Source of the DNA: Minisyncoccia bacterium
Lineage (GTDB): Bacteria; Patescibacteriota; Minisyncoccia; Phycocordibacterales; PALSA-1337
Reading direction: 5' to 3'
DNA: 64,000 nt
Assembly: GCA_049997795.1 (NCBI GenBank)
Contig: JBEKVT010000001.1
Location: 101,067-165,066 of the forward strand
The position numbers and the translations under genes are program-made. The notes under the pieces were generated by a model. That model made no database searches and was not told the origin of the DNA. It saw only the letters and a list, made by a program, of their open reading frames with translations. Of the stretch, positions 1 through 53,318 are shown piece after piece (positions within the stretch are counted from its first letter, which is position 1; the number at the start of each line of letters is the position of its first letter).

Positions 1-1028
1 TTCCTCGGCCAAGAAGGCCGGGGTCTCCAGTTTTCCGAAGGGGTCGGCGTACACGACATCGGTCTGGAAGCTGACCTTGGCCAGATCGGTGAAGCCCTTC
101 AGAAGGACGCCGCCGCCGGTCAAGATGACCTTGCCGACATTCTTCTGGTATTTCTTCTGATAGTTGAGCAGAGCGGCGTTGGCTTCATAGAAGATGTAAT
201 CGAGGTTGACGGTGATGATCTCGGTCAGCTCCTTGTATTCCGGACCGCCCTTCAGGCCTTTGGAGCGCTTCATGGTCTCGGCGTCGATGACCGGCACGGA
301 CAGAGCCTTGGACAAGGCCAGGGTGATGTCCTGGCTTCCTTTGTTCACGATGTGCGAGGCGCGCAAGATGCCTCGCTCGACGACATAGAGCTTGGTGGCC
401 CTGGCGCCCATATCTATGATCATGACCGTGGAGACGCCCTGATCGGCCACTGCCCGGATGGAGCTGAAGATCTCGATCTCGTAGAAGCTCGGCTGGAGGC
501 CGCTCGAGGACATGATCGACTGGTATTCATTCAGGTATTCGTTGTGGATGGCCACCACCAGGACGTCGCGCCGCTCCGGCTCGGTCTTGGCTGTTTCATT
601 CTCGCCGACGTACGTATCCTCTTTGGGGATTATCGAATAATCCAAGAAGACTTCGTTCAGAGGGACGGGGATATACTTGCGGGCTTCGATGGTCACCACG
701 TCACCGACCTGTTTGTCGGGCACGGGAGGTATGGAGATGAAAGTTATGAGGCTCGACGAGAGCGGCAGGGCAGCGCCGCAGGAGACGGTGGTCGTCTTGG
801 ACTCGCGCAGGAGATCCTTGACGGCCTCGATCATCTTGGCGGCCGGCAGGCTGACGGCCCGGCCGACCTCGGTAGCCGCGTAGGGGCCGAGAGCCAGCTC
901 GCCGTAGGTCTCGAGGACCGCCCGGCCGCGCTTCTTCCTGATCTGCACGACCTTGACGGCCGAGGAGCCGATGTCTATGCCGAGGACGCTGGTCTCCTTT
1001 TGGAAGATTGGGGAGAAGAAAGACGCCA
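1..1028 (-). CDS. pilM: Type IV pilus assembly protein PilM (actin/FtsA-like ATPase fold); partial, C-terminus lies beyond the window start
   Basis: Manual reverse-complement translation from ATG at 1028..1026 gives MASFFSPIFQKETSVLGIDIGSSAVKVVQIRKK..., an open frame to position 1. GIDIGSS and later GGG motifs are typical of PilM/FtsA. This gene is not in the ORF track because it runs off the window edge. Confidence 0.7.
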
Positions 1029-37386: not shown

Positions 37387-37417
37387 TCAGGTATATTTTT
37401 CCGGTCTCCTCCAGTAA

Positions 37418-37852
37418 TCACTTCCTGCCGCGCCGGCGCTTGTAGAAATTCTTCGATTCGCGGGTGATAGCCAGGATGCCGATCACGCCGATATAAGAGG
37501 CGCTGACTTCGGCCGGCAGATGGTATGACGGATTGTAGAAGGTGTCCCCGACGATGAGGGCAAGCACCAGGATCGTCCAGAGGATGGCATAGAGCTCGCC
37601 GGGATGCATGGAGCTGTGCATGTGGTGCCAGCGTCGGAATTCCTTCTCGGCGCTGTATATGGCGAGAAGAGCCGTGTAGATAGCGGCGATGGCCAGGAGA
37701 ACCTCGGCTTTCGAAAGGATATTGTCTTGGTAGAAATCGTAGGCGATGGCCGCGAAGAAGATCGCCGTCCAGAAATTGACCATGTGGCGCCAGAGCTTGA
37801 ACGAACCGGCCTTTTGAAGATCGAAGTGTTTCATGTTTGAGACCTGTATCAC
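37418..37852 (-). CDS. Hypothetical membrane protein
   Basis: 144 aa with four TM helices, directly upstream of the ABC permease gene. Confidence 0.4.
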   Translation of the reverse strand: MIQVSNMKHFDLQKAGSFKLWRHMVNFWTAIFFAAIAYDFYQDNILSKAEVLLAIAAIYTALLAIYSAEKEFRRWHHMHSSMHPGELYAILWTILVLALIVGDTFYNPSYHLPAEVSASYIGVIGILAITRESKNFYKRRRGRK

Positions 37853-39090: not shown

Positions 39091-39095
39091 ATGGA

Positions 39096-39821
39096 TTATT
39101 TTATGAATTCGTCCTCCGACGTCAGGCGGTCTTTGACCTTGACGTCGCTCTCGATCTCCCCGTCCATGAGCTTCATGATGCGTTCGGCATGGTCGGCCGT
39201 GGTAGCCTCGTGGGTGATGAGGACGATGGTCTTGCCGTGCTCCTCGTTCAGGTGCTGGATGATCGACATGACGTTCTTGCCGGCCTTGGAGTCGAGATTG
39301 CCCGTCGGCTCGTCGGCGAAGATGATCTCCGGATCGTTGACCAGGGCCCTGGCTATGGCCACGCGCTGTTTCTCTCCGCCGGAGAGCTCCGCCTGCTTGT
39401 GATGCATGCGCTGGCCGAGGCCGACGTCTTCGACCGCCTTCCTGGCGCGCTTCTCCCACTCATGCTCCGGCACGCTCGAGTAATAGAGGGGCAGTTTGAC
39501 GTTTTCCAGGACGGTGGTGCGCGGCAGGAGGTTGAAGGCCTGGAAGACGAAGCCGAGCTTCTCGTTCCGGATCTTGGCCAATTCGTTGCCAGAGTAAGAT
39601 GATACGTCTTTGCCGTCGAAGTGATAGACGCCGGAAGTCGGCTCGTCGAGGAGACCCAGAAGGTGGAGTAGGGTCGATTTGCCTGATCCTGACGGACCCA
39701 TGATAGCCAGGAACTCCCCTTTCCTGACGTTGAAAGTCACGCCGTTCAGGGCCACCGTGGCGGTGGCTCCGCCGTCGTGATAGACCTTCTTCAAGTCCTT
39801 GACTTCGATGATGTTAGCCAT
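39096..39821 (-). CDS. ABC transporter ATP-binding protein (MacB/LolD-like)
   Basis: Walker A GPSGSGKST, signature LSGGEKQR and Walker B IIFADEPT. Confidence 0.85.
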   Translation of the reverse strand: MANIIEVKDLKKVYHDGGATATVALNGVTFNVRKGEFLAIMGPSGSGKSTLLHLLGLLDEPTSGVYHFDGKDVSSYSGNELAKIRNEKLGFVFQAFNLLPRTTVLENVKLPLYYSSVPEHEWEKRARKAVEDVGLGQRMHHKQAELSGGEKQRVAIARALVNDPEIIFADEPTGNLDSKAGKNVMSIIQHLNEEHGKTIVLITHEATTADHAERIMKLMDGEIESDVKVKDRLTSEDEFIK

Positions 39822-41296
39822 TACTTCACGTACGTCACTACCTTGTCGCCGACAGAGAGGCCGGAAACGATCTCGATAGTGCCGTAAGAGCCCTTGAGGC
39901 CTGTCACGACGGGCACGGGAGCGTAAGTCTTGCCGTCGGGACTGACAAGGCGCACGGTCTTCGAGCCACTGGTGTCGGTGACGGCCCGATAAGGGATCTC
40001 TAAGACGCCGTCGCGCTCGTGGGTCAGGATCTCGAGATTGGCCGTCATGCCGGAACGGATGCGGCTATCCGGATTCACGAATACCAGAGTGACTTTGTAG
40101 GTCGGTACGCCTTCGAGGACGGTCTCGGCCGGATCGATCATGATGACCTTGGCCGGAAAATCCGTGTCTGAGCCGTAAGCGTCGAGAGTGCTCGACGCCA
40201 GATCGCCGACGGAGACTTTGGCGATATCGGCTTCAGGCACGTAAGCCTCTACCTTGAAATCATTGTTCTGCACCGCGAAGCCGGACTGGCCTGGCGCCGC
40301 GTATTCGCCGACATCCGGGTCGGCCCTGGTGACGACGCCGTCGATCGGCGAGACGAGGGTGTCTTGGTCGAGAAGGGCTTGGGCTTGGGCGACTTTAGCG
40401 GCCAGGGCGGCGATCGATTGGGAGGAATTGCCGGCGAGCTTCAGGTCATAATTGGATTGAGCGGTGGAAAGGCCGGTTTGCGCCGCCGTCACGGAGTCGG
40501 TGGCGGTATTCAGAACGGAAAGCCCGGAATTCATGGTCGCTACGACGGCATTGATCTGGACTTGAGTCATGCTCGAGTTCCCGGGATTCAGCGCATTAAC
40601 GACGACCGAAAGGTCGGTCATGAAGCTCTTCACGGTCGAGAGATACCCGCTTGAGCGCGAGATGAGGCTTGCCGGGTCGAGGGCAGCGCTCAAGAGGTCG
40701 GCTGACCATTGGTTGAGGATCCCTGTGATGTTCAGGCGCTCTTGGTTCAAGGCGGTCTGGATGGGAACGGTGTCGGTGCGGATATAGAGGGTCGGGTTGG
40801 AACTCTGGGGGTTGGAGAAGAAGGCATCGGTGTAATTGAACAGGGCGTTCTGGGCCTTGACGAGGCCGTCATGAGCGGCGTTCAGGGCGTCTTTCTTGGC
40901 GTTGTCGAGCGAGGTCTTCTGGACGGCCAGCTCTTCGGGCGTCAGGCCGCGCGACAGGTCGGCCAAACTAGCTTCGGCGCTTGAGAGGGCCGCCCGATCG
41001 TTGCCGCTGTCGAGCGAAGCTATAAGGTCTCCCCTCTTCACGGCATCGCCAACCTTGACATAGATCCTGGAGATGACTCCGCCCTTCTCGAAAGCCAAGT
41101 CGGCCTTGGCGATCGGCGAGATCGTGCCGGTTACGCTCACCGTTTCTATGACGTTGCCTATTTGGGCCGCGGCCGTCTCGAATATCGGGACAGAACTACC
41201 GCTTCGCGCCCAGACGATGAGGATGACTATGATGATGACGGCGAGCCCGGCGATGACCCACTTATTTTTTAAATACTGCCAATAAGATTTTTTCAT
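39821..41296 (-). CDS. Efflux periplasmic adaptor subunit (HlyD/MacA family)
   Basis: An N-terminal TM helix, a long coiled coil, and beta-barrel/MP domains (SPIDGVVTRADPDVGEY...). Confidence 0.7.
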   Translation of the reverse strand: MKKSYWQYLKNKWVIAGLAVIIIVILIVWARSGSSVPIFETAAAQIGNVIETVSVTGTISPIAKADLAFEKGGVISRIYVKVGDAVKRGDLIASLDSGNDRAALSSAEASLADLSRGLTPEELAVQKTSLDNAKKDALNAAHDGLVKAQNALFNYTDAFFSNPQSSNPTLYIRTDTVPIQTALNQERLNITGILNQWSADLLSAALDPASLISRSSGYLSTVKSFMTDLSVVVNALNPGNSSMTQVQINAVVATMNSGLSVLNTATDSVTAAQTGLSTAQSNYDLKLAGNSSQSIAALAAKVAQAQALLDQDTLVSPIDGVVTRADPDVGEYAAPGQSGFAVQNNDFKVEAYVPEADIAKVSVGDLASSTLDAYGSDTDFPAKVIMIDPAETVLEGVPTYKVTLVFVNPDSRIRSGMTANLEILTHERDGVLEIPYRAVTDTSGSKTVRLVSPDGKTYAPVPVVTGLKGSYGTIEIVSGLSVGDKVVTYVK

Positions 41297-42360
41297 GCGG
41301 TATATTGTAGCATATCGTCCTTGCGCTGTTTAATGAGACTCTCCAGCTTCTTGGCGTTGCCGTGGCTGATCAGGCCGAGGTATGACTGCACAGTCTCCGC
41401 CTTTCCTTGTTTTTGCCGGATGCCTCGGAACATGCGCTTTTTCGTCGCCGTCCGTAGCACTCGATGATCCGGGAAAGTGACCCAACCGAGATAATCGACG
41501 CCAGACGCAATAGTTTTAATTGAGATTTTTCTCGGGTGAAGTTGAAGTTTCAACTTGCTCGATAAAAACTCTTTGATCGGGGGTAAAAGCCCGATGAGCC
41601 ATTCCTTATCGCGGGAAATGATAATGAAATCGTCGGCATAGCGGATATAGTATTTCGCCTTTAATTTGTGCTTCACGAACTGGTCGAACTCGTTCATATA
41701 GACATTCACGAGAAGCTGTGAGGTCAGGTTGCCGAGAGGCAGGCCGATGCCCTTTTTTACTGATGAAAAGCTTTTGATGACCTTTGATAGAAGGCCAACC
41801 GTATTTTTGTCAGGAATACGTTCGTCGAGGATGCCTATTAAAACCTCCTGGTCTATCGACGCGAAGAACTTCCTGATATCGCATTTCAGGACCCAGACGG
41901 TCTTCGTATGATTCTGCGAGGCCTTGTAGGCGAATGACCGGAATCTGTCCATGGCCTTGTGCGTTCCCTTGCCCAGACGGCATGAGAATGAATCAGATAT
42001 GAACCTCCTGTCGAAGAACGGATAAAGTTTCCTGTGCAGTGCATGATGCAACAGCCTGTCTCTCACCTCGGCCTTGTGGATATCGCGGCGCTTGGGATCA
42101 TAGATCCGGAAAAATTCATAAGGCGAGTGCTCGTAAGTTTTGGACGCCAGATCGTTGTGGAGCGAGATGATATTGCCCATCAAATCCCGCTCGAATTCTT
42201 GGACATCCTTGCGTTTTCGTTTCCCTTTTACAAATTCCTTCCAGGCCTCAAGAAGATTTTCGAGAGAAATGATATCATCATAGGCATGAACAAATTGGAT
42301 CCGTCGCAGACCCGTAAAGCCCCCCCCCCACGCAATTTTGCCGGTTTTGAATAAGATCAA
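41293..42360 (-). CDS. Diversity-generating retroelement reverse transcriptase (Brt-like)
   Basis: DGR-specific motif GLPLGNLTSQLLVNVYM (a SQ motif instead of the group II QG) and YADDFIII. The N-terminus ENLLEAWKEFVKGKRKRK and other blocks align with Bordetella phage Brt. An adjacent TR/VR pair is present. Confidence 0.85.
   Translation of the reverse strand: MILFKTGKIAWGGGFTGLRRIQFVHAYDDIISLENLLEAWKEFVKGKRKRKDVQEFERDLMGNIISLHNDLASKTYEHSPYEFFRIYDPKRRDIHKAEVRDRLLHHALHRKLYPFFDRRFISDSFSCRLGKGTHKAMDRFRSFAYKASQNHTKTVWVLKCDIRKFFASIDQEVLIGILDERIPDKNTVGLLSKVIKSFSSVKKGIGLPLGNLTSQLLVNVYMNEFDQFVKHKLKAKYYIRYADDFIIISRDKEWLIGLLPPIKEFLSSKLKLQLHPRKISIKTIASGVDYLGWVTFPDHRVLRTATKKRMFRGIRQKQGKAETVQSYLGLISHGNAKKLESLIKQRKDDMLQYTA
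42320..42329. repeat. Homopolymeric C10 (G10 on the minus strand) tract
   Basis: Read directly from the sequence. It lies in the 5' coding region of the RT (codons W-G-G-G) and just upstream of the avd start. Confidence 0.8.
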
Positions 42361-42688
42361 AGATGCTTATCTGCTTTGGCATGGTTATCACCAGGAATTA
42401 CCGAAAATCCACAGGTATTCGCTAGGATCTCGCATTGACTCGTTATTTATAGAGATCATCGAGGCCGTCGCGGCGGCAAGCTTCTTGTCTCGCGAAGAAA
42501 AACACCCTTACGTGCGCCTGGCGATCAGAAAATCGGATGCGCTCAAGATACTTCTGATGGTCCTCTGGGAAACGAAATCGCTCGACGACAAGAAGTATAT
42601 CGCATTGTCGGTGAAATTGGACGAGGTTGGCAGAAACCTCGGCGGCTGGAGCGGCCAGCTCATGAAACAAAACTCCCCCAACAAATAG
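42338..42688 (+). CDS. avd: Avd-like accessory variability determinant (four-helix-bundle family), encoded divergently from the RT
   Basis: LPKIHRYSLGSRIDSLFIEIIEA and the C-terminal VGRNLGGWSGQLMKQ resemble Avd/four-helix-bundle proteins (compare bAvd ...VGRILGSWIARVNRK). The start is TTG at 42338 or 42347. Confidence 0.65.
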   Translation: MPVLNKIKDAYLLWHGYHQELPKIHRYSLGSRIDSLFIEIIEAVAAASFLSREEKHPYVRLAIRKSDALKILLMVLWETKSLDDKKYIALSVKLDEVGRNLGGWSGQLMKQNSPNK

Positions 42689-42712
42689 TAGGGGGAGAAA
42701 TGAAGAGAGTTA

Positions 42713-42834
42713 CGGACACCGCCGCCGGATTGTCACTGTTCCAGTCGTTGTCGAGCCTGTTGTAGTTCCAGTTCCACCTGTCGTCGTCCCAGTAGAGGTA
42801 ACGGACGTTGAGGTCGCCGTCAGCGTTGCGGTAT
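42713..42834 (-). repeat. DGR template repeat (TR), 122 nt core
   Basis: Hand alignment to the VR gives 122 nt without indels and 24 mismatches, 23 of them at TR adenines on the minus (sense) strand. The TR carries AAC/TAC/GAC codons where the VR has CTC/TTC/GGC and so on. The track ORF 42660..42860 is this repeat, not a gene. Confidence 0.8.
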
Positions 42835-43081
42835 CGTACGAAGTGCCCTCCGTGCCACAACCCCTCGAATGCTCTCGGGGTTGAATCGTATTCGGCATAT
42901 TTAATGCCCTAGCACCTCGTACCAAGTATTTTCATTTTTTAATGAAGTTCTGCATACACCACCCTACCCAAAACCTTGGTCGTGGATATTCTCGATGTAC
43001 GGATACTAGTTTCGGTAGCAAGCAACCTTGGTCGCTCACGTATTCACCTACTCCCGCCCCATCTTACCATACAGAAATCAG

Positions 43082-43109
43082 CCCTGTGCGTTGTCGCACA
43101 GGGCTGAGG
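43082..43109 (-). other. GC-rich hairpin ~55 nt downstream of the VR (cagccctgtgcg-ttgt-cgcacagggctg)
   Basis: Perfect 12-bp stem. Its position is analogous to the hairpin/cruciform 3' of the VR in the Bordetella phage DGR. Confidence 0.5.
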
Positions 43110-43155
43110 TTAAAGGTCATAGGTTCCGAAGAACAAATTGACCGAGGTTCAAGAA

Positions 43156-43779
43156 CTAACTTGCGGACACCGCCGCCGGATGGCCACTGAGCCAGAAGGA
43201 GTCGAGCCAGAAGAAGAGCCAGAGCCACCTGTCGTCGTCCCAGAAGAGGAAACGGACGAAGAGGCCGCCGCCAGCGCGGCGGTATATCGTGCCCCAGAAG
43301 AAGATGTAGCGGGTGTTGCCCTCTTCATCCTTTTTCCACTCCTCAGGGATGAGGTGCGGATTCTTCAGAAGGTAGTCGAGCACGTTGGCGTCCAGGACAG
43401 GCATCTTAGCGAGCTCCTTGCGGAGGTCGTTACCAACGATGGAACTGCCCTTCCTCTGCTTCTTCGACAAGTAGAACTCGATCTTCTTGCCGTCGACGTA
43501 GAGGTCGGGACCTTTCCGTTCGAGCTTGACGATACCGCCCTTGTGGTGCTCCTCGACCGTCCAGTTGTAGCCGGAGGGGATGACCGCATCGACACCGCAG
43601 TCGATGGCGTGTTCAACGGGCTTGATTTCGGCAAGACCTCGTTGGACATCCCTCACGCGGCCGAGGAAATCCCCGACTGTGAGAGCTTTTACTTCTTCCA
43701 GCGACTGGAAGCCGTTGCGGTTGAGTGCATGCTCGATTTCTTGAGCCAAACCAACACCGAGGATTAACTTGTCATTCAT
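43156..43779 (-). CDS. DGR variable (target) protein: N-terminal helix-hairpin-helix domain (ComEA-like), C-terminal variable region; no signal peptide
   Basis: 207 aa. LILGVGLAQEIEHALNRNGFQSLEEVKALTVGDFLGRV resembles an HhH motif. The VR occupies the last ~45 codons (...YRRAGGGLFVRFLFWDDDRWLWLFFWLDSFWLSGHPAAVSAS*). Confidence 0.75.
   Translation of the reverse strand: MNDKLILGVGLAQEIEHALNRNGFQSLEEVKALTVGDFLGRVRDVQRGLAEIKPVEHAIDCGVDAVIPSGYNWTVEEHHKGGIVKLERKGPDLYVDGKKIEFYLSKKQRKGSSIVGNDLRKELAKMPVLDANVLDYLLKNPHLIPEEWKKDEEGNTRYIFFWGTIYRRAGGGLFVRFLFWDDDRWLWLFFWLDSFWLSGHPAAVSAS
43164..43285 (-). repeat. DGR variable repeat (VR) at the 3' end of the target gene
   Basis: Cognate of the TR. The 17-nt 3' end is identical and GC-rich (IMH-like ccggcggcggtgtccg), after which the flanks diverge. 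Confidence 0.8.
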
Positions 43780-43943
43780 GACGTGTTTTTCTCCATAATG
43801 GACATGTTCGTTTAGAACTAGTCTGGTACTGTTGGGCTCCTCGTGTTGAGGTTTGCCACAGCGCTCAAGGACCTGAAGGGATTCAAGTCCCTAAACGCTG
43901 CGGCAAATGCAAGTTAGTCTTTCAAAGACCTTATTACCTTGCT

Positions 43944-43973
43944 ATTATACACCAAATGTGACTTGTATGTCAA
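43944..43973 (-). promoter_or_regulatory. Consensus sigma70 promoter TTGACA-18-TATAAT directed toward the DGR target gene
   Basis: Read on the minus strand. It is followed by a long imperfect hairpin (43853-43906) in the ~155-nt leader, then GGAG and ATG at 43779. Confidence 0.5.
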
Positions 43974-44032
43974 GATGTCCAAATCTGCCTTGAAACAAGG
44001 CCATTTCCTTCCACATAGAGAGGGTATGACGA

Positions 44033-44887
44033 TCAGCTTCCGCTCCTCATCAGTCGGCCGGGATTGCGGCGCGAGACGATGAAGACATTAGAATACTTCT
44101 TGGGAGTGCGGGTCTTCTGGCCCTTGCCCGCGGGCTTGCCCCAGCGGGTCTTCAGGCGGCGCAGGCCGCGGCCTTGGCGCTGTTCGCCGCCGCCGTAAGG
44201 ATGGTCGACCGGGTTCTGGGCGGTGCCGCGCACCGTGGGACGTATCCCCATCCAGCGCGAGCGGCCGGCCTTGCCGATGACCACCAGGCGATTCTCCTCG
44301 TTGGAAACGGCGCCGATCGAAGCCCAGGAATTCTGGTGGACTTTGCGGACCTCGGTCGAAGGCATCTTGATGTGGGTGTAGCCGGCGTCATTGGCGATGA
44401 CTTGGGCGAAAGAACCGGCCGAGCGGACAAGTTTGGCGCCGGAGCCGGGATTGATTTCGATGTTGTAGACGTATGTGCCGACCGGGATGTTCTTCAAAGG
44501 CAGGCGATTGCCTGTCTCGATCGGGGCTTTTTCGGAAACGATGAATGTGTTGCCGACTTTCATGGTCTTCGGCAGGAGGACGTAGCGCTTGGCGCCATCC
44601 CTGTAGGCGACCAGGCCGATGTAGCCGGTGCGGAAGGGATCGTACTCGACGGTCTTCACTGTGGCCGGGATGTCTTTCTTGTCATACAGGAAATCGACGA
44701 GGCGATAGAGCTTCTTGTGGCCGGCGCCCTTGTGGCGGACGGTGATGCGGCCGAAAGCGTTCCTGCCGACGTCGCGCTTGAAACCTGTTGTGAGCGGCTT
44801 GTACGGCTCGGACGCCGTCAAGTATTCCTTGAACGGCAAGGTTGTCATGTGGCGGCGCGATTTGGTTGTGGGTCGGTATGTCTTCAT
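44033..44887 (-). CDS. rplB: 50S ribosomal protein L2
   Basis: 284 aa with the GRNxxGxITxRHxGGGHK pattern. Confidence 0.9.
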   Translation of the reverse strand: MKTYRPTTKSRRHMTTLPFKEYLTASEPYKPLTTGFKRDVGRNAFGRITVRHKGAGHKKLYRLVDFLYDKKDIPATVKTVEYDPFRTGYIGLVAYRDGAKRYVLLPKTMKVGNTFIVSEKAPIETGNRLPLKNIPVGTYVYNIEINPGSGAKLVRSAGSFAQVIANDAGYTHIKMPSTEVRKVHQNSWASIGAVSNEENRLVVIGKAGRSRWMGIRPTVRGTAQNPVDHPYGGGEQRQGRGLRRLKTRWGKPAGKGQKTRTPKKYSNVFIVSRRNPGRLMRSGS

Positions 44888-44896
44888 GGAGCTTGA

Positions 44897-45385
44897 TTAT
44901 ACGAAGTCTATCTTCTCGCCTTTCTTGACGGTGACGATCGCTTTTCTCACGCCGGAAACGGTGCCGCGCCGGCCCTTGACGAAGACATTCTTCGACGGCA
45001 GGTTGACCATGGCGACTTTGACCGGAGTGACCTTGTACAGGGCGCGCATGGCCTTGGCCACTGAAGATTTGTTCGCATTGGAAGTGACCTGGAAAGTGTA
45101 AGCGCCGGATTGGCTCAAGATGCCGGACTTCTCCGTGATGTGCGGACGGATGATGCTCTCGGTCGCGCTTCCGAACGAGCCTTTCGGCAGGGCAGGACCG
45201 GCCTTCCCGGCACCCGCGTCCTTTGTCACGACCGCCGAGGAGATCTTTTCGGGTTTCGGGGACGAGAACTGCTTGGCGCCCTTATCTTTGGCATCGCCCT
45301 TCTTCACTGTCTTGGCCAATTCGGCCGTGGCCTGAATGTGGCTCTGCTCGTGCTTCTTGTCTTTTCTGAATCCGAATAATGGCAT
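44897..45385 (-). CDS. rplW: 50S ribosomal protein L23 with a ~70-aa N-terminal extension
   Basis: The C-terminal core SIIRPHITEKS... matches L23. Confidence 0.75.
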   Translation of the reverse strand: MPLFGFRKDKKHEQSHIQATAELAKTVKKGDAKDKGAKQFSSPKPEKISSAVVTKDAGAGKAGPALPKGSFGSATESIIRPHITEKSGILSQSGAYTFQVTSNANKSSVAKAMRALYKVTPVKVAMVNLPSKNVFVKGRRGTVSGVRKAIVTVKKGEKIDFV

Positions 45386-45395
45386 GGTATTGAAA

Positions 45396-46070
45396 TTATT
45401 TGTCGGTCTTATCCGTCTTCACAGTAAGGGCCTTCAGCGACTCTTCCGGATCTGTAACGATAAGGTATGTATGATTCAAAACGGACACCGGATTCAGGTT
45501 GCGAAACTCCTCGACAGAGACATTGCCAAAATTGCGGAAGCTCTTAGCTACAGCGTCGGTCTTCTGGCCGAGAGCGATCAGGGCGGCGTTCTCCTTCTTC
45601 GTGGCGAGCTTCTCATAGCCCTTGATCTTGGCCAATGAATGCAAAATGGTCCGAGCTTCTTTGGCCTTGGGCGCGGCAAGCTTCATGGCGTCGAGGAAGA
45701 GCACTTCGCCGTCCTTGAATTTCCGGGACAGGATCGTGTAAAGGGCCTTGACCCGGGCCTTCTTGTTTATCTTGCGGGTGAAATTCTTGTCGTTTCTCGG
45801 GCCATGAGCGACGCCGCCGCCGACCCAGATCGGGGAGCGGGTGGAACCGTGGCGGGCCCGGCCGGTGCCCTTCTGCTGCCAGGGCTTCCTGCCGCCGCCG
45901 CGGACCTCGCCGCGGGTCTTGGTGTGAGCGACATTGGTGCGGCTGTTGGAATTCATCAGGCGGACGATCTCATGGACGAGATCGGCATTCCAAGGGACGT
46001 TGAAGATGCTCTCCGGGAGCTTTATCTTCCCTGCGGCCTTACCTTCTTGATTGTATATCGGTGCGTCCAT
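45396..46070 (-). CDS. rplD: 50S ribosomal protein L4
   Basis: The GTGRARHGS motif region; 224 aa. Confidence 0.85.
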
Positions 46071-46089
46071 GGTGATATTGAAATGACGA

Positions 46090-46716
46090 TCAGTTCTTGG
46101 CGACGATCTCGACCAACGTGCCCCGGCGGCCGGGAACCGCTCCGGAAACGTAAAGGATGCTCTCTTCCGGATCGACGTGCACGACCTTCAAGTTCGTGAC
46201 CGTCACCCGGTCCGAACCCATCCTGCCGGCCATCCTGGTACCGACTGGCACGTGAGTGCGCAAGCCGCCGCCGATTGAGCCGGGCTCGCGCTCGGAATGC
46301 TTCTGGCCGTGGGAACGCGGACCGCCGTGGAAGCCGTGGCGCTTGACCACGCCCTGGAAGCCTTTGCCTTTGGAGATGGCGGAGACTTGGACGACGTCGC
46401 CGGCCTTGAATTGGGAGAGTTCCAGCTTGTCGCCGACTTTGGCCGTCGGTCCGCCGGCTGGCGGATCCGTCCGGAATTCCTTGACCGAAGCGAAACTGCC
46501 CAAATCTTTCCACTGGCCCTTCTGGGGCTTAGCGATGCGGCTTGCGTGCCGCGAGCCTTCGCCGACCTGCACGGCTTCATAGCCGTCATTCTCCTTGGTG
46601 CGGACTTGAGTGACGACGTTGCCGCGCACGAGGACGGCCGTAGCGGGGATGGCGGCGCCGGAGGCGTCATAGATCTGGGTCATATTCAGCTTTCTTCCGA
46701 TAATGAATTTCATGAT
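46090..46716 (-). CDS. rplC: 50S ribosomal protein L3
   Basis: MKFIIGRKLNMTQIYD matches the L3 start. The track ORF to 46833 is a spurious extension into the structured spacer. Confidence 0.85.
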   Translation of the reverse strand: MMKFIIGRKLNMTQIYDASGAAIPATAVLVRGNVVTQVRTKENDGYEAVQVGEGSRHASRIAKPQKGQWKDLGSFASVKEFRTDPPAGGPTAKVGDKLELSQFKAGDVVQVSAISKGKGFQGVVKRHGFHGGPRSHGQKHSEREPGSIGGGLRTHVPVGTRMAGRMGSDRVTVTNLKVVHVDPEESILYVSGAVPGRRGTLVEIVAKN

Positions 46717-46722
46717 CTTTAC

Positions 46723-46845
46723 GAACGGTAGCGGATGTCCTTCTCGATACGCGGAAAGTTTTCTGCAGAAAACTTTCCTAATCCTCGACGATTCTCTGCT
46801 GAGAATCGTCTGCGGACATATCTCGAAAGACATCCGCTACCGTTC
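46723..46845 (-). other. Structured intergenic element between rpsJ and rplC: a 17-bp outer stem enclosing two perfect hairpins (three-way junction)
   Basis: Outer stem gaacggtagcggatgtc/gacatccgctaccgttc. Inner palindromes are ggaaagttttctg-cagaaaactttcc and gacgattctc-tgct-gagaatcgtc. Confidence 0.55.
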
Positions 46846-46853
46846 TTTCAAAA

Positions 46854-47273
46854 CTACATCATCTTGACGTCGATGTTCACGCCGGACGGAAGGGAGAGAT
46901 TGGTCAGGGCTTCGATGACCTTCTGGTTCGGGTTGACGATGTCGATCAGGCGCTTGTGCACCCTCATCTCGAACTGCTCGCGGGCGTTCTTGTCTATGAA
47001 CGACGAGCGGTTGACCGTGTACTTCTTGATCTCGGTCGGGAGGGGCGTCGGGCCGTGGATCACGGCGTCGTAACGGGCAGCCGTGTCCATTATCTGGCGC
47101 AAGCTGGCATCGAGGATCTTGTGCTCGTAGGCGCGCACCCGGATCCTAAGGTGCGGCACTTCGCCTGCCGGCTTGGCCTTGCGCGAGCGCACCGGCTTTC
47201 CGGCCGACACGGACTTCGCTGCGGCGGATGGCGCGGCGGCTTTCTTCTTGGTTGTTTCTTTCGCTGTCGCCAT
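46854..47273 (-). CDS. rpsJ: 30S ribosomal protein S10 with a ~35-aa basic N-terminal extension
   Basis: The core LRIRVRAYEHKILD... matches S10. Confidence 0.85.
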   Translation of the reverse strand: MATAKETTKKKAAAPSAAAKSVSAGKPVRSRKAKPAGEVPHLRIRVRAYEHKILDASLRQIMDTAARYDAVIHGPTPLPTEIKKYTVNRSSFIDKNAREQFEMRVHKRLIDIVNPNQKVIEALTNLSLPSGVNIDVKMM

Positions 47274-47302
47274 GTTCTTGATCTTTATCTCGTGACAGAC
47301 GG

Positions 47303-48490
47303 TTAGGCGATTACTTTGGTGACCACGCCCGAGCCGACGGTCTTGCCGCCCTCGCGGACGGCAAAGCGTATCTGGGCTTCGAGAGCGACGGGTGCGACGA
47401 GCTTCACCTTGAAGCTGGCGGTGTCGCCGGGCATGACCATCTCCACCTTTTCCGGCAGAGTGACCTCGCCGGTCACATCGGTGGTACGGATGTAGAACTG
47501 CGGCTTGTAGCCGGTGAAGAACGGGGTGTGGCGTCCGCCCTCTTCCTTCTTCAGGATATAGACTTCAGCCTCGAATTCGGTGTGGGGCTTGACGGAGCCG
47601 GGTTTGGCCAGGACCTGGCCGCGGGAGACGTCATCCTTGGCAGTGCCGCGCAGGAGGATACCGGCGTTGTCGCCGCAAATGCCTTCTTTCAGGGACTTAT
47701 TGAACATCTCGATGCCTGTCACGACTGTCTTCACCGTATCCCTGAAGCCGACTATCTCGACTTCGTCGCTGATCTTGACCTTGCCGCGCTCGATCCTGCC
47801 GGTCACGACGGTGCCACGGCCTTCGATCGAGAAGATGTCTTCTATCGGCATGAGGAACGGCTTATCGACGTCGCGGACCGGTTCCGGGATGAAGGTATCG
47901 ATGGCATCCATGAGCTCGTCGATCTTCCCCGTCCAGACCGGATCGCCTTCGAGGGCCTTCAGGGCCGAACCGCGGATGACCGGGGCGTTCTTGCCGTCGA
48001 ATTCGTACTTGGTGAGGAGCTCGCGCACCTCTTCCTCGACCAGATCGATCAAGTCCTTCTCCTCCACCATGTCGCACTTGTTGAGGAAGACCAGGACCTT
48101 CGGCACGCCGACCTGGCGGGCCAGAAGGATGTGCTCCCTGGTCTGGGGCATGACGCCGTCCTGGGCGGACACGACCAGGATGGCTCCGTCCATCTGGGCG
48201 GCGCCGGTGATCATATTCTTGACGAAGTCGGCGTGGCCGGGACAGTCGATGTGGGCGTAGTGGCGCTTCGGCGTCTCGTACTCGACGTGCGAGAGCGAGA
48301 TGGTGACGGTCTTGGTGGCGTCACGGACGGTGCCGCCTTTGGTGATGTCGGCGTAAGCCTTGAGCTTGGCCATGCCCTTCTTGGCCTGGACGGCCAGGAT
48401 GGCGGCGGTCAAGGTGGACTTGCCGTGGTCGATGTGACCGATCGTGCCGACGTTCACGTGCGGCTTATTGCGATTGAATTCAGCTGCCAT
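47303..48490 (-). CDS. tuf: Elongation factor Tu
   Basis: [16 protein letters not shown] and NKCD GTPase motifs; 395 aa. Confidence 0.95.
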
Positions 48491-48605
48491 ATTATTTACT
48501 TAGTGCTTTGGCTTCCAACGTGCGGGCGCGAACGCCGCGCGACGGGCGCCAAAGATAAAGTTGTTAATAGCGATTTATAAAACGCCGGGTAGGCGTGTAA
48601 ATCAG

Positions 48606-48633
48606 AGGATAGCAGAGGGGGATGGGGTTGTCA
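48606..48633 (-). promoter_or_regulatory. Candidate promoter for tuf (TTGACA-16-TATCCT), immediately after the Fic stop codon
   Basis: Read on the minus strand. Confidence 0.35.
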
Positions 48634-48645
48634 AATATATACAAA

Positions 48646-49860
48646 CTAGACCCCGTCCTCTGATTTCCTGTTTAAGAATTCAGGGACAAAACCATTTTCT
48701 TCCAGAGCTCTTACTACATCCCTGAGAAGATAATTGTTACGGAACTGAATTGTATATTTTCTGCTTTTATTGCCCTTGGTCGGCACGAGCATCTCTTTAT
48801 CCTTTAACCGTTTAATTATGCGCGACCTTTGAACAGGCGAAGCCTCGTTCAATGCAGCTTTTATGTCTAAGGATTTAATCGTCATATCCTTAGTCTTAAC
48901 AACACAGCTCAAAACAGCATGCTCCTGATTATTTATACTCTTACGTTCAAGAGAATATCGGAGCGCGGGTATGAGAATGGTATCGGTGATATATTCCAAG
49001 TTAAGCAATTTATCAATTTTTTCTATCTCTTTACGTAAACCGTTTAGAACATATTCGCACCATTCAAGAACTTTGACTTCATCGCCAGTATCGGCAACCG
49101 CAAGCATTTCATAGTATTTCGCTCGATCCATACAAAAAATAGCAGTGGGGTTCAATATACGCCCTGTCTTAACCTGGAATCCTTGTTTGATTAACAGGGC
49201 GTATGTGAACATTCGGACAAATCTACCGTTGCCGTTATCAAATGGATGTATCCAAGCCATTCGGTGATGGGCAAGCGCAGTAATAAGCAGATGATACTTG
49301 GAACTGACAGAGGCATTAACAAATGTCATAAGTTCTTCAAAATATTCAGGCACCTTAATGCTCTTTGGTGGGACATGCGGCGACCCTGTAATCGATACAT
49401 CCACTGGTCTCAAGGCGCCAGGATAGTGAGAACCCTCTCCCCCTGGGGGAGGTGTGAGATCTTTTACAATAATCCTGTGTATTTCGGAAATCAGGGCGCG
49501 GTCAAAGATAGTTGTCTTCTTTATATTTTTCTCAATAAAATCAATGACATCTTCCAAATTAAAAATCTCTTTCATGCTTTCGTCCGCAGTAGCTCTGGAA
49601 GGATTTTCTATTACCTTTTCGACAAATTCCATCAGGGTCGTTCTATTCCCCTCAATGCGAGCAGATCCGAGGCTCTCAAATAATTGAAAAATCTCCTTCA
49701 ATTGGAAAAATACATGTGGTGGAACTGGGCCTCCAAGCCTTTTAACCCTTAATTTCTCTAGCTCTATGATAGTAGTCGCTAAATCAGAGCTCCATTTTGG
49801 ATCATAGAGCTTGAGTTCTGTGTGTTTAAATTGTTTAGTATTTTCCTTATCCATAATCAT
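48646..49860 (-). CDS. Fic/Doc (Fido) family protein, class II (N-terminal inhibitory S-x-x-x-E-G motif), C-terminal winged-helix domain
   Basis: The Fic active-site motif HPFDNGNGRFVR and the N-terminal SARIEGN inhibitory-helix motif. The coding GC content (~40%) is much lower than in the flanking genes. Confidence 0.8.
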   Translation of the reverse strand: MIMDKENTKQFKHTELKLYDPKWSSDLATTIIELEKLRVKRLGGPVPPHVFFQLKEIFQLFESLGSARIEGNRTTLMEFVEKVIENPSRATADESMKEIFNLEDVIDFIEKNIKKTTIFDRALISEIHRIIVKDLTPPPGGEGSHYPGALRPVDVSITGSPHVPPKSIKVPEYFEELMTFVNASVSSKYHLLITALAHHRMAWIHPFDNGNGRFVRMFTYALLIKQGFQVKTGRILNPTAIFCMDRAKYYEMLAVADTGDEVKVLEWCEYVLNGLRKEIEKIDKLLNLEYITDTILIPALRYSLERKSINNQEHAVLSCVVKTKDMTIKSLDIKAALNEASPVQRSRIIKRLKDKEMLVPTKGNKSRKYTIQFRNNYLLRDVVRALEENGFVPEFLNRKSEDGV

Positions 49861-49869
49861 GATTTAACA

Positions 49870-49898
49870 ATTATACCAAAAAACACATATGTGTCAAC
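49870..49898 (-). promoter_or_regulatory. Consensus promoter TTGACA-17-TATAAT; the predicted TSS is 0-3 nt from the Fic start codon (leaderless)
   Basis: Read on the minus strand. The -10 element ends 9 nt before the ATG at 49860. Confidence 0.5.
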
Positions 49899-49965
49899 GT
49901 ATATTACTAGTGCAAAATTGATTTCAATTAACACAGCCAGTCCTACCATTTAACAATATTTAAAT

Positions 49966-49996
49966 ATCGAAAAGGCCCTTATAAATTAAGGGCCTT
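49966..49996 (-). terminator. Intrinsic terminator after fusA (aaggccctta-...-taagggcctt + T-run)
   Basis: Read directly from the sequence. It separates fusA from the Fic cassette. Confidence 0.55.
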
Positions 49997-50018
49997 TTTA
50001 GTAATTAACCAATATTTC

Positions 50019-52163
50019 TTATTTCCTCTTCTCCTTTATCTCCTCGGCCACATTGGCCGGCACGACCTCGTAGTGATCGAATTCGAGCATGGCGCTCCCT
50101 TGGCCAGAGGTCATTGAGCGCAACTGGGTGGTGTAGCCGAACATCTCGGAGAGCGGCACTTTGGCGATGATGGAGACGGCCTGGCCCTTCGGGTTCTGGC
50201 CTTCAATCATGCCGCGCTTCGAGGCGATACTGCCGTTCACGTCGCCGATGTACTTTTCAGGGCAGACGACTTCAAGCTTCATGATGGGCTCCAGGATGAC
50301 CGGCTTGGCGCGCTTGGCGGCGTCCTGGAAGGCTTGGGAGGCGGCGATCTTGTAGGCGATCTCCGAGGAGTCGACGTCATGGTACGAGCCGAAGGTCAGT
50401 TCGCAGGAGATGTTGACCATCTTGTAGCCGGCCACGATGCCGCGGTCCATGGCTTCGTGGACGCCTTTCTCGACGGCTGGGATGAATTCCTGCGGGATGA
50501 CGCCACCCTTGATAGAGTTGATGAATTCGAAATCATCGTAGCGCTTGACGTTCTTCGGGACCTTCTCGCCTTCGACGAGTGGTTTCATCGGACGCAAGGT
50601 GATGCGGACGTGGCCGTACTGGCCCTTGCCGCCCGTCTGTTTGATGTACTTGTTCTCGGCCTCGGCTGTACCGAGGATGGACTCGTGATAAGCCACCTGC
50701 GGCTCGCCGACGTTGGCCTCCACGCCGAATTCGCGCTTCATGCGGTCAACCATGATCTCGAGGTGGAGCTCGCCCATACCGGAGATGATGGTCTCGCCGG
50801 TCTCCTGGTTGGAAGTGATCTTGAAGGTCGGGTCTTCATTAGCCAATTTGTGGAGAGCGATGCCCATCTTCTCCTGGTCGGCCTTGGTCTTCGGCTCGAT
50901 CCGGAGAGAGACGACCGGCTCCATGAATTTGATGACTTCGAGGACGATCGGGTGCTCCTCGTCGCAGAAAGTGTGCGAAGTCAGGGCGTCTTTCAAGCCC
51001 ACGGCCGCGGCGATCTCGCCGGCGAAGACTTTCTTGACCTCTTCGCGCTTATCGGCCTGCAAACGGACGATGCGGCCCAGGCGCTCTTTCTTGCCGGTCG
51101 TCGAATTGTAGAGATAAGTGCCGGCTTCGATGGTGCCGGAATAGACGCGGAAGAAGGTCAGTTGGCCGACGAACGGGTCGTTCTGGAGCTTGAAGGCCAG
51201 AGCGGAGAATGGTTCGCTGTCGGAAGCGTGGCGGACGATCTCTTCGCCGGTATTCGGGTCGATGCCCTTGATAGGCGGCATGTCGAGAGGCGACGGCAGG
51301 TAGTCCACGACGCCGTCCAAGACCAGTTGCACGCCGATATTCTTCAGAGCGGAACCGGTGAAGACCGGGAACATCTTGTTCTCGATCACGGCCTTCCTGG
51401 TGATCTTCTTCAATTCCTCCACGGGAACTTCGTGGCCCTCCAGATATTTGTGCATGGCCGCGTCGTCGTGCTCGACGATCTTCTCGACGAGCTCGGCGCG
51501 ATATTTCTTGGCCTCTTCCAGAAGATCGGCCGGGATCTCCTTCTCGACGACCTTCTCTCCTTTGTCGCCCTCGAACGTATAGGCCTTCATCTTCAAAAGA
51601 TCGATGACACCGGAATGGTTCTCTTCGAGACCGATGGGGATCTGGAACCGGACAGCGTTCTTATTCAAGCGTTCCAGAATAGACTTAAATGATTTCTCGA
51701 AAGATGCGCCCATCCGGTCCATTTTGTTGATGAAGCAGAGGCGCGGCACTTTGCCGTCGTCGGCATAGCGCCAGTTGGTCTCCGATTGAGGCTCCACGCC
51801 GGCCACGCCGTCGAAGACGACGACCGCACCATCAAGGACGCGCAACGAACGTTTGACCTCGACCGTGAAATCGATGTGCCCCGGGGTGTCGATGATATTG
51901 AAACGGACCTTTTTCGACAGGTCGGCCGCCGGCATATACGTTGGGTTCCAGAAACAGGTGATGGCCGCGGCCGTGATGGTGATGCCGCGCTCCCTTTCCT
52001 GCTCCATCCAGTCGGTCACGGTGTCGCCCTCGTGGACCTCGCCAATCTTGTGGGTCATGCCTGTGTAATACAAGATACGCTCCGACGTGGTCGTCTTGCC
52101 GGCGTCGATGTGGGCGATGATGCCGAAGTTCCTTACTCGTTCAAGCGGGTAGTCGCGTTGCAT
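50019..52163 (-). CDS. fusA: Elongation factor G
   Basis: 714 aa with the G-domain motifs [14 protein letters not shown] and NKMD. Confidence 0.95.
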
Positions 52164-52172
52164 AAAGCTTTG

Positions 52173-52643
52173 TTACCAGGCGAAGTGGGCGAAGGCCTTG
52201 TTGGCTTCGGCCATCTTGTGGACATTCTCGCGCTTCTTGACGGCTTCGCCCTCGTTCTTCGAGGCGGCGATGATCTCGTCGGCCAATTTCTCGGCGATCG
52301 GCTTGCCTTTCTTGGAGCGGGCGGCTTCGATGATCCACTTCATGGACAGGGCGCTTCGGCGCTCCGGCCGGACTTCGCGGGGAACCTGGTAGTTGGCACC
52401 GCCAACGCGGCGGGAACGGACTTCCATGGCCGGGGCCGTGTTCCGGAGGGCCGTTTCGAAGACTTCGAGCGGATTCTCCACCTTGGCTTTCTCTTTGATG
52501 GCGGTCATGCAGTCGCTCATGATGGCCCGGGCGATCGTCTTCTTGCCGGATTCCATGATGTAATTGGTGAACTTGGCCAGCTTCAGGGACTCGTAGGCCA
52601 TGTCGGGCTTGAGGTCGCGCTTTATGTTGATCTTGCGTCGCAT
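52173..52643 (-). CDS. rpsG: 30S ribosomal protein S7
   Basis: 156 aa, MRRKINIKRDLKPD... matches S7. Confidence 0.9.
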   Translation of the reverse strand: MRRKINIKRDLKPDMAYESLKLAKFTNYIMESGKKTIARAIMSDCMTAIKEKAKVENPLEVFETALRNTAPAMEVRSRRVGGANYQVPREVRPERRSALSMKWIIEAARSKKGKPIAEKLADEIIAASKNEGEAVKKRENVHKMAEANKAFAHFAW

Positions 52644-52664
52644 GATATTGGAAAAACGTCCGAA

Positions 52665-53087
52665 CTAAGCGGCTTTGGCGGCCTTCGGCTTCTTATTGCC
52701 GTACTGGCTGCGGCCCTTCCTCCTGGCTTCGACGCCGGCGCAGTCGAGGACGCCGCGCACGATGGAATAGCGCAGGCCGACATCCTTGACGCGGCCGCCG
52801 CGGAGGAGGACTACGGCGTGTTCCTGGAGGTTATGCCCCATGCCCGGCACGTAGGCCGTGACTTCCATGCCGTTGGTGAGGCGCACGCGGGCGATCTTGC
52901 GGATGGCGGAGTTGGGCTTCTTCGGGGTCTTGGTGGTGACCTTGACACAGACGCCGCGCTTGAACGGGGCCGGGAAGAAGATCGGCCGGTTCTTGATGGA
53001 ATTGAAAGTACGAGTCAGGGCCACGGACTTCGACTTCCGCTTGAAGCGCTTCCTGTGAGTCTTCGTCAACTGGTTGATGGTCGGCAT
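52665..53087 (-). CDS. rpsL: 30S ribosomal protein S12
   Basis: [14 protein letters not shown]... matches S12. The start is trimmed from the track ORF. Confidence 0.9.
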
Positions 53088-53318
53088 GATGAGATGCTTT
53101 TGCGTGGATCCGCTTGGATTTTCACCATTTTCGGCTAGAGAGCCTGAATGATTACTCACGCGGGTCCGATAATCGTGTTTTTATGCCCTCGGGGGCAGTG
53201 GCGATACATTAGCATGCCGGCAGACCCGACGCAATGCCGGCCATTCCGAACAAAAAAGACCGCCAGGTGTTGTAGGCACCTAGCGGCTTCGACGCGAATG
53301 AATGAGCGGTTGGTCGCG

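Follow-up and report, generated by a model that had tools for sequence, protein, structure and literature searches.

In the 64-kb window analysed here (the whole stretch from 101,067 to 165,066 of contig JBEKVT010000001.1, Minisyncoccia bacterium assembly GCA_049997795.1), a gene encoding a Fic protein lies on the minus strand at 48646–49860, between fusA, the gene for elongation factor G (EF-G), and tuf, the gene for elongation factor Tu (EF-Tu). We consider it likely that this gene forms a horizontally acquired, self-contained cassette of approximately 1.4 kb, which encodes a class II Fic protein of the CccR family, occupies a permissive fusA-tuf spacer, and serves as a toxin-like or abortive-infection module. 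Besides its single gene, the cassette comprises a near-consensus sigma-70 promoter and three direct TGTTAAAT boxes, and it has neither a partner gene nor its own terminator. What is new is that the Fic gene travels with this conserved operator-like array. The genes of the region, all on the minus strand, are arranged in the order rpsL, rpsG, fusA (50019–52163), Fic (48646–49860), tuf (47303–48490), rpsJ, and rplC onwards. The interval 48491–50018, which an earlier note made from the sequence had singled out, is exactly the fusA-tuf spacer.

The Fic protein of 404 amino acids was compared with known families and structures. Pfam Fic (PF02661) matched residues 119–223 with 52.3 bits (cut-off 24, E 1.1e-13). 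The closest solved structure was PDB 7XUX (phmmer E 6e-96, residues 10–395 against 3–380), which is CccR of Yersinia pseudotuberculosis (Wang et al. 2022, PMC9755527), and BLASTP aligned our protein with CccR at 45% identity over 387 amino acids (E 3e-107). An AlphaFold2 model calculated from 34 homologues had a predicted local distance difference test score of 83.7 and a predicted template-modeling (TM) score of 0.84. In Foldseek, the model gave TM scores of 0.77–0.90 with 7XUX and only about 0.5 with SoFic structures. The same model showed the secondary-structure pattern of a winged helix at residues 311–371, within the C-terminal winged helix that we delimited at residues ~308–375 (~48736–48939, minus strand). 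The PADLOC SoFic profile also matched residues 42–371 (E 4.8e-40); this profile is broad, and defence-annotation tools would therefore call the gene SoFic. The NCBIfam SoFic equivalog NF046030 reached 32.3 bits against a cut-off of 550, and the Doc model TIGR01550 reached 12.9 bits against 38.65. An exhaustive search for the subfamily yielded 139 clusters (50% identity) at E ≤ 1e-30 and 4755 at E ≤ 1e-3. As judged from these comparisons, the protein belongs to the CccR family, for which a structure has been solved and a member characterised.

The catalytic motif was confirmed as HPFDNGNGRFVR at residues 205–216 (H205-PFDNGNGRFV-R216; 49213–49248, minus strand), with the His, GNGR, and final Arg all present. 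At motif position 5, the protein has Asn209 and not the Asp or Glu of the canonical HxFx(D/E)GNGRxxR, a difference that the earlier note had missed. This Asn is invariant in the subfamily and is common to CccR, whose motif is H192PFGNGNGRTVR203 (PMC9755527); because it is invariant across 34–40 homologues, it appears to be a subfamily signature and not a defect of the window copy. The other residues invariant across these homologues were S66, R68, I69, E70, G71, N72, H205, P206, N211, G212, R213, and R216. The inhibitory helix motif is the segment S66-ARIE-G71 (49648–49665, minus strand). It has the form (S/T)xxxE(G/N) and stands on the same chain as the Fic motif and N-terminal to it, which defines class II (Engel et al. 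2012, as summarised in PMC9755527). This segment aligns with S59ARIEG of CccR, which contacts R203 in the crystal structure. Given the full-length homology to CccR, in which S59ARIEG blocks R203, the class II auto-inhibited architecture that the note had proposed is supported.

The gene stands apart from its surroundings in composition, as the note had stated (coding GC of about 40% against about 60% in the neighbours). In a binned GC profile, the lowest-GC bin of the 64 kb was 49001–50000 (GC 0.388, window average ~0.58). The Fic coding sequence had a GC content of 0.405 and a GC content at third codon positions (GC3) of 0.402, which was the lowest GC3 among the 53 long open reading frames (ORFs) used for comparison (mean 0.726, standard deviation 0.11). 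The neighbouring ribosomal and factor genes had GC 0.57–0.63 and GC3 0.75–0.89. Related genomes do not share the gene at this place: a Fic gene was found at the fusA-tuf junction in 0 of 49 relatives with a readable junction, and in 0 of the 3 closest relatives, whose DNA was inspected separately. Homologues with 49–71% identity were located at 80 metagenome loci, where the gene GC was 0.30–0.46 whatever the flank, and was well under that of the flank in higher-GC hosts (0.42 vs 0.61, 0.41 vs 0.54). The nearest non-self relatives were 64–71% identical and came from metagenome-assembled genomes (MAGs) labelled Liptonbacteria, Moraniibacteriota, Falkowbacteria, Paceibacterota, Nanoarchaeia, and Nitrotoga. 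Because GC3 is 0.40 against ~0.8, no relative has a Fic gene at the junction, and low-GC homologues occur in unrelated contexts, the horizontal acquisition of the gene is supported. The unameliorated composition (GC3 0.40) argues for a fairly recent arrival and not for long domestication.

Alignment of the upstream regions of homologues exposed the 8-mer TGTTAAAT. At the window locus, three such boxes lie on the minus strand. The distal box (49948–49955) is exact and lies 95 nucleotides (nt) upstream of the ATG. The middle box, TGTTAATT (49926–49933), has one mismatch and precedes the ATG by 73 nt, with distances of 64 nt to the proximal box and 22 nt to the distal box. The proximal box (49862–49869) is exact, lies between the −10 element and the ATG, and covers the expected transcription start (~49863). 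Across 65 distinct loci, the 200 nt preceding the Fic gene contained 133 exact copies in forward and 2 in reverse orientation; the density there was 10.2 per kb, as compared with 0.026 per kb for the flanks. When these AT-rich regions were resampled 500 times with an order-1 Markov model, 2.1 ± 1.5 copies were expected and at most 8 occurred, against 125 observed fully inside the regions. The layout was shared within the family, with the proximal box at −6, −9, −15, or −18 from the ATG, and with the middle and distal boxes 61–66 nt (mode 65) and 84–89 nt (mode 88) upstream of the proximal box, respectively. The middle box was present with at most one mismatch in 56 of 65 loci, compared with 0.7% of control windows within coding sequences. 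Conservation of the upstream regions was limited to the box columns, and variants co-changed within a locus (TGATAAAT twice, TGTTAATT twice, TGCTACAT twice). A homologue on a Pasteurella plasmid (45% identity) is without TGTTAAAT and has AGATAAT twice, once at the start codon. A literature search with the box sequence returned only unrelated primer matches, and no description of the family-wide box design was found in it. We also considered a wider regulon for the box within the window and rejected it: the 64 kb contain a single further TGTTAAAT copy, located behind a TyrRS-like gene, a number that chance could account for.

The Fic promoter was located at 49870–49897 (minus strand), with the −35 element TTGACA at 49892–49897, a 16-nt spacer, TG at 49877–49878, and the −10 element TATAAT at 49870–49875. 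The promoter described in the note therefore stood in both hexamers, which are perfect, and its spacer had to be corrected from 17 to 16 nt. Read as TTGACA-16-TGnTATAAT, it agrees with the consensus at 12 of 12 positions and is the sole perfect match in 5.5 kb. The −10 element ends 9 nt before the ATG (49860), and the predicted start at ~49863 leaves a leader of 3 nt. The same arrangement was frequent among the homologues: at 44 of 61 loci, the first T of the proximal box was also the last letter of a −10-like hexamer that agreed with TATAAT in at least 4 of 6 positions, and at 27 of 61 the proximal box was 6 or 9 nt from the ATG, which brings the −10 element to only 5–8 nt from the start codon. 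A leaderless mRNA, as predicted in the note, or a near-leaderless one would fit this geometry, which appears to be a recurrent family trait and not an accident of the window copy because it recurs at these 27 loci. The missing Shine-Dalgarno sequence before the Fic gene is no evidence for a leaderless mRNA, since host ribosomal genes are also without one; no Shine-Dalgarno-like sequence was found in the 25 nt upstream of rpsG, fusA, tuf, rpsJ, rplC, rplD, rplW, and rplB (44000–53200). A perfect 12-bp palindrome, ACACATATGTGT, was additionally observed in the spacer region of the Fic promoter (49883–49894, minus strand), and a different palindrome, GCTTATATAAGC, occurs at the same place in a subgroup of homologues (the spacers of our loci L103, L109, L114, and L116). 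The spacer palindrome could be a second, dimer-type operator, or chance.

CccR and SoFic bind their own promoter-proximal DNA via the C-terminal domain, and we therefore read the TGTTAAAT boxes as probably the autoregulatory operator of the cassette's own winged helix. The C-terminal helix-turn-helix (HTH) of CccR represses its own promoter via AGATAATCAT-N26-ATGATAATCT (PMC9755527), and SoFic binds to the 100 bp that precede its own start codon (bioRxiv 10.64898/2026.07.09.737422). The window gene resembles CccR in having repeated boxes around its promoter, as CccR has near its own −35 and −10 elements. The two differ in that the CccR operator is inverted, whereas the window has three direct boxes with spacings of ~65 and ~23 nt; no inverted AGATAATCAT half-sites 26 bp apart were found at the window Fic promoter, and the recognition helices are unlike each other (KPAQITYQIGKL vs SPVQRSRIIKRL). 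The arrangement also resembles iteron-like or multi-box autoregulated promoters of winged-HTH proteins, with short direct repeats phased by ~2 and ~6 helical turns and one repeat overlapping the transcription start; unlike in iterons, no replication function is implied, and binding by the Fic winged helix is presumed here. At the level of the family, loci with TG(C/T)TACAT boxes had a different start of the recognition helix, and several divergent helices still paired with TGTTAAAT; this covariation of recognition helix and box sequence is suggestive only. We are evenly divided on the broader proposal that the three phased boxes form the portable operator of a self-repressing, leaderless Fic cassette spreading among ultra-small candidate phyla radiation (CPR) and related genomes, sometimes with a Zn-ribbon partner of 60–65 amino acids. 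Three phased TGTTAAAT boxes fused to the −10 element, often leaderless, constitute a family-wide and testable cis-regulatory design for CccR-like Fic genes. With this design, the autoregulation demonstrated in CccR and suggested in SoFic could be examined across a far larger clade.

Genes that might accompany the Fic gene were searched for in the window and at the homologue loci. No credible small ORF for a partner or antitoxin was present in either Fic flank of the window, and no neighbour of at least 80 amino acids was conserved among the Fic homologues. A four-Cys Zn-ribbon ORF of 60–65 amino acids (CKKCGS...YDGxSEIxCxxCGARFGRWSGKEL) was found downstream of Fic at 21–22 of 78 homologue loci (L093, L099, L102, L105–L108, L114, L116, L118–L121, L123, L127, L128, L137, L138, and others). 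It starts −11 to +70 nt from the Fic stop codon, mostly +4 to +19. No copy of this ORF occurs in the window, and no Pfam family matched it above the cut-off. It could be a partner or antitoxin, and is reminiscent of the 47-amino-acid anti-Sofic protein AS1, which is encoded downstream of E. coli Sofic (PMC12249575). Among 122 immediate neighbours of the homologues, the commonest families were HsdS (5), UPF0175 (4), and ResIII/HsdR-like (3). Genes for HsdS, the type I restriction-modification specificity subunit (5 loci), and for ResIII/EcoEI_R-type helicases (2–3 loci) adjoin Fic homologues (L106, L107, L116, L127, L128, and others), which suggests that a minority of the family members are located inside restriction-modification loci.

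Here, we propose a mechanism by analogy with CccR and SoFic. The Fic protein would dimerise, and its winged helix would bind the TGTTAAAT boxes at its own promoter, resulting in low expression, while Glu70 would hold the AMP-transferase off. Once a trigger such as phage infection or stress lifts this inhibition, the enzyme would AMPylate an essential host protein, as CccR does with FtsZ and SoFic with EF-Tu, and growth would be arrested. The cassette would thereby act as a toxin-like or abortive-infection module. CccR is itself a class II Fic protein with the inhibitory helix S59ARIEG and AMPylates FtsZ at Thr8 (PMC9755527); ftsZ is not within the window. Homologues strongly conserve the winged helix together with its recognition helix (ESPVQRSRIIKRLK). 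This would suit a rival reading in which the gene chiefly encodes a DNA-binding regulator, or is a selfish addiction gene, its Fic activity having lost importance, and persists since deletions beside essential genes are hazardous. The absence of a partner gene and of a defence-island context in the window, together with the fixation of the cassette in the population (see below), is also in keeping with such a gene. We regard this explanation as unlikely. The catalytic and inhibitory residues are all invariant in 34–40 homologues at 46–71% identity, which points to selection on the enzyme; within the 64 kb, TGTTAAAT occurs only at the gene's own promoter, apart from the single probably chance copy, with no wider regulon visible; and the unameliorated GC3 speaks for a fairly recent arrival.

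Several points weigh against an acquired, self-repressing, toxin-like cassette. Mobile carriers of close relatives were not found: the viral contigs of IMG/VR held no Fic relative, the INPHARED phages gave only remote Fic matches and no close copy, and plasmids gave only 3 distant copies with 45–47% identity. No integrase and no convincing target-site duplication was present around the insert, where the flanking repeats of 10–11 nt were about as expected by chance. The canonical Mg-binding Asp/Glu of the Fic motif is replaced by Asn, although CccR with the same Asn is reported to be active. The boxes are direct repeats while the two-fold symmetric CccR dimer binds inverted repeats, so that the geometry must differ or another factor reads the boxes. 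About 27% of the homologues have the Zn-ribbon gene that is missing here; should it be an antitoxin, the window copy may differ in its regulation or be attenuated. A defence role is only suggested, as the restriction-modification neighbours are few and the window context is not a defence island. Finally, we infer the AMPylation activity, the target, and the autoregulation of the window protein from homology and from the operator-like array.

The position between the EF-G and EF-Tu genes, which the earlier note considered striking, did not prove to be meaningful. None of 78 homologue loci had fusA, tuf, rpsG, or rpsJ within ~5 kb of the Fic gene. In 49 of 79 relatives, tuf lies at most 6 kb downstream of fusA, with gaps of 113–5805 bp, and these gaps contained 74 ORFs of at least 100 amino acids that matched 48 different Pfam families. 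This cargo includes HepT/MNT and Phd/RelB toxin-antitoxin genes, PG_binding_1 proteins, and enzymes of purine and pyrimidine metabolism. The closest relatives (89–90% EF-G identity) share the upstream synteny and have other genes in the gap, not an empty junction: either a protein of 366–390 amino acids of unknown function with PG_binding_1 proteins, or proteins of 477 and 1015 amino acids. In a fourth close contig, for which the gene table was used, a gene for 462 amino acids follows fusA. Long EF-G matches in some relatives were considered as inteins and rejected, as they were EF-G cross-hits to the downstream EF-Tu. The ribosomal superoperon (S10/spc) of the window is interrupted at two further places. 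One interruption, between rplB and rpsS (36549–44033, ~7.5 kb), holds a diversity-generating retroelement (DGR), efflux genes of the HlyD-like and MacB/FtsX-like types, and ORFs of unknown function, and the other, between rplE and rpsH (30600–32931), holds a Zincin_1 gene and a phosphoribosyltransferase gene. Since no homologue locus is near the elongation factor genes, the junction is hypervariable, and the superoperon is interrupted elsewhere, the placement of the Fic gene is best read as a coincidence at a permissive, hypervariable junction. The finding as stated changes little, as it amounts to a known family at a junction that is routinely used for accessory genes.

The position would have a function if the Fic protein and the adjacent EF-Tu gene formed a pair, in which reversible, SoFic-like AMPylation of switch I tunes translation and the placement upstream of tuf, possibly with read-through, was selected. 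The precedent for this is real. SoFic, which has the same architecture of class II Fic and winged HTH, AMPylates EF-Tu in switch I, with T65 as the primary and T62 as the secondary acceptor, and inhibits translation; Doc phosphorylates EF-Tu (bioRxiv 10.64898/2026.07.09.737422). In the window, no scored terminator lies between the Fic stop codon and the tuf promoter, and the host EF-Tu retains the T62 equivalent. Its switch I reads TVT(62)ISL(65)SHVEY, with Thr at the position of E. coli T62 and Leu at that of T65. Thr was found at the T62 position in 49 of 49 relatives, and the T65 position was occupied by Leu in 32, Ile in 13, Val in 1, and Thr in 3. In the window genome and its four closest relatives, switch I is remodelled (residues ~48–67, with (S/A)HVEY), vs the near-universal APEEKARGITI sequence.

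These residues count against the pair, as T62 is reported to be modified by SoFic only when T65 is present (bioRxiv 10.64898/2026.07.09.737422). Because 46 of 49 relatives have Leu, Ile, or Val with or without a Fic gene, the missing T65 is not an adaptation to Fic; the acceptor appears to be missing clade-wide and for reasons unrelated to Fic. Moreover, the window protein is 16–17% identical to SoFic (TM ~0.5) vs 45% to CccR, whose target is FtsZ, and the SoFic equivalog reached 32 bits vs 550. No homologue among the 78 loci lies within 5 kb of tuf or fusA, and the junction holds unrelated cargo in relatives. A functional pair is thus very unlikely in our view, and of the link between Fic/Doc proteins and EF-Tu drawn by the note the precedent stands, whereas its application to this host does not. 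We consider highly improbable the specific proposal that the CccR-family Fic protein and the adjacent EF-Tu are a cis-linked enzyme-substrate pair, in which the remodelled switch I keeps only the T62-type Thr and EF-Tu supply would be tied to the expression of the toxin by transcripts of the cassette that run on into the tuf promoter region. The absence of the SoFic acceptor Thr65 from the EF-Tu of these CPR bacteria matters when the SoFic-EF-Tu result is extended across bacteria.

The closest characterised relative of the protein also raises the possibility of a role outside the cell. CccR is secreted by the type VI secretion system (T6SS), enters cells through FhuA, and AMPylates the FtsZ of competitors (PMC9755527). 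The window protein might likewise be a delivered inter-bacterial toxin or regulator, exported by the CPR cell onto neighbouring or host bacteria, and CPR bacteria are commonly episymbionts. The AlphaFold2 model has no signal peptide or secretion-associated domain, residues 1–11 being merely disordered, and no secretion-system genes adjoin Fic in the window or at the homologue loci. Furthermore, members of the family stand as isolated single genes in a wide variety of genomes, and a T6SS is not known in CPR. We give such a delivered toxin very little credence.

Comparison with the known Fic systems placed the protein beside CccR and not beside SoFic or Doc. It shares with CccR the full-length homology (45%), the fold (TM 0.77–0.90), the identical SARIEG, the C-terminal HTH, and the unusual motif HPFxNGNGRxVR, with Asn in place of Asp/Glu; it differs in that CccR is a T6SS effector of a gammaproteobacterium, whereas the window gene has no secretion context. 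SoFic (Shewanella SO_4266 and E. coli Sofic) is a single-gene anti-phage system (Millman et al. 2022, bioRxiv 10.1101/2022.05.11.491447). It is similar in its N-terminal helix with the inhibitory motif, its Fic core, and its C-terminal winged HTH, in the PADLOC profile match (4.8e-40), and as a stand-alone toxic AMPylase that binds its own low-GC, promoter-proximal 100 bp. In contrast, the structure-based identity is 16–17% with a TM score of ~0.5, the equivalog scored 32 bits against 550, the SoFic motif has the canonical D/E, its EF-Tu acceptor T65 is Leu in the window host, and no ORF like that of AS1 (47 amino acids, downstream of E. coli Sofic) occurs in the window. Doc/Phd and the class I FicT/FicA systems likewise belong to the Fido superfamily, encode growth-arresting toxins that act on essential proteins (EF-Tu for Doc), spread horizontally, and are autoregulated. 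Their inhibitory helix or antitoxin is on a separate protein, whereas that of the window Fic is in cis with no partner gene. Doc is in addition a kinase with the motif HxFx(D/N)(A/G)NKR, and the Doc model gave the window Fic 12.9 bits vs 38.65.

The 3′ edge of the insert is marked by the tuf promoter TTGACA-17-TATCCT (48606–48634, minus strand), whose −35 element begins 11 nt after the Fic stop codon. The candidate tuf promoter of the note was borne out by comparison. A TTGACn-16..18-TAnnnT promoter 65–170 nt upstream of tuf was found in 26 of 50 relatives, none with a Fic gene, and on this comparison the window promoter is native and clade-conserved. Since it is native, the insert ends within 11 nt after the Fic stop codon. 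The predicted tuf transcript carries at its 5′ end a small GC hairpin, ACGCC-UACCC-GGCGU followed by UUUAUAAAU (48582–48596, minus strand), which was identified by folding; this hairpin may in addition halt transcription running on from the Fic gene. In ~11 of those 26 relatives, a similar small GC hairpin and T run come just after the tuf promoter, with different stem sequences and compensating changes. In the closest relatives, a conserved block TTTATCTTTGG...stem...CCAAAGCACTAAA follows just before the tuf ATG. The tuf leader is ~130 nt long and structured (window 48491–48634, minus strand; L178 11120–11285, L179 8151–8316, and L017 12730–12895), and no Rfam family matched the spacer regions or this leader. 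Both elements of tuf, the promoter and the leader, are conserved whatever cargo precedes them. Thus, the str/S10 ribosomal superoperon is not insulated in Paceibacteria, and the fusA-tuf spacer is a recurrent cargo site at which tuf keeps its own promoter and leader. A perfect 11-bp inverted repeat, AAATCAGAGGA / TCCTCTGATTT, was observed at 48599–48609 and 48656–48666, 46 nt apart. It pairs the last Fic codons with the −10/start region of tuf, and a hairpin across the junction would form in read-through RNA.

On the other side of the insert, a terminator-like hairpin follows fusA (49971–49997, minus strand), with an 11-bp stem AAAGGCCCUUA / UAAGGGCCUUU, a 5-nt loop, and the tail UUUUCGAUAUUU. 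The 71-nt segment containing it folded at −20.2 kcal/mol (z −4.67), and 0 of 200 shuffles folded as well. Of the intrinsic terminator claimed by the note, the strong hairpin stood; its U tract is interrupted (UUUUCGAUAUUU), and a strict consensus scan for terminators did not list it. Relatives also carry hairpins after fusA, which are unrelated to that of the window. We considered the fusA hairpin as a conserved part of the cassette and rejected this, as an upstream terminator was present at only 13 of 63 Fic homologue loci, at variable distances. With the fusA hairpin exactly on one side of the insert and the native tuf promoter on the other, neither essential transcription unit is disrupted.

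The flanking gene fusA encodes an EF-G of 714 amino acids with the Pfam domains GTP_EFTU, EFG_III, EFG_IV, and EFG_C and has a host-like composition (GC 0.58, GC3 0.82), and tuf, recognised by Pfam, encodes an EF-Tu of 395 amino acids with the divergent switch I. The best EF-G matches, up to 88–90% identity, were from Patescibacteria/CPR MAGs of the Paceibacteria group, labelled Taylorbacteria, Paceibacterota, Minisyncoccia, and Kaiserbacteria. In several peat metagenomes, 19 contigs, including one of 657 kb, encoded an identical Fic protein, and the order fusA-Fic-tuf was the same on all of these contigs that reached far enough. An identical EF-Tu was encoded on 17 contigs, and Fic was present in 17 of 17; the cassette is fixed in this Paceibacteria population. 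No empty-site allele was found among these 17 contigs, and the exact insertion boundaries are therefore not readable from a pre-insertion allele. In another genome, a Nanoarchaeia-labelled MAG (L181, 1–5501), a Fic homologue with 67% identity is located amid PRiA4_ORF3, Bro-N, Pyr_excise, and PIF1-helicase genes, surroundings that look like a mobile or viral-type island.

Further elements were observed in the window away from the Fic locus. Directly downstream of rplB lies a complete DGR (41293–43779), composed of a reverse transcriptase gene (41293–42360, minus strand), a bAvd-like gene (42338–42688, plus strand), a template repeat (42710–42834), and a variable repeat (43161–43285). The variable repeat corresponds to codons 165–207 of a target gene of 207 amino acids, which is without a Pfam match, and 23 of the 25 mismatches between the repeats fall on template adenines, the classic DGR signature. 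In addition, a tmRNA gene was located at 19559–19924 (minus strand), and a tRNA-Ile gene with the anticodon TAT (UAU), an uncommon type in bacteria, at 10814–10886 (minus strand).

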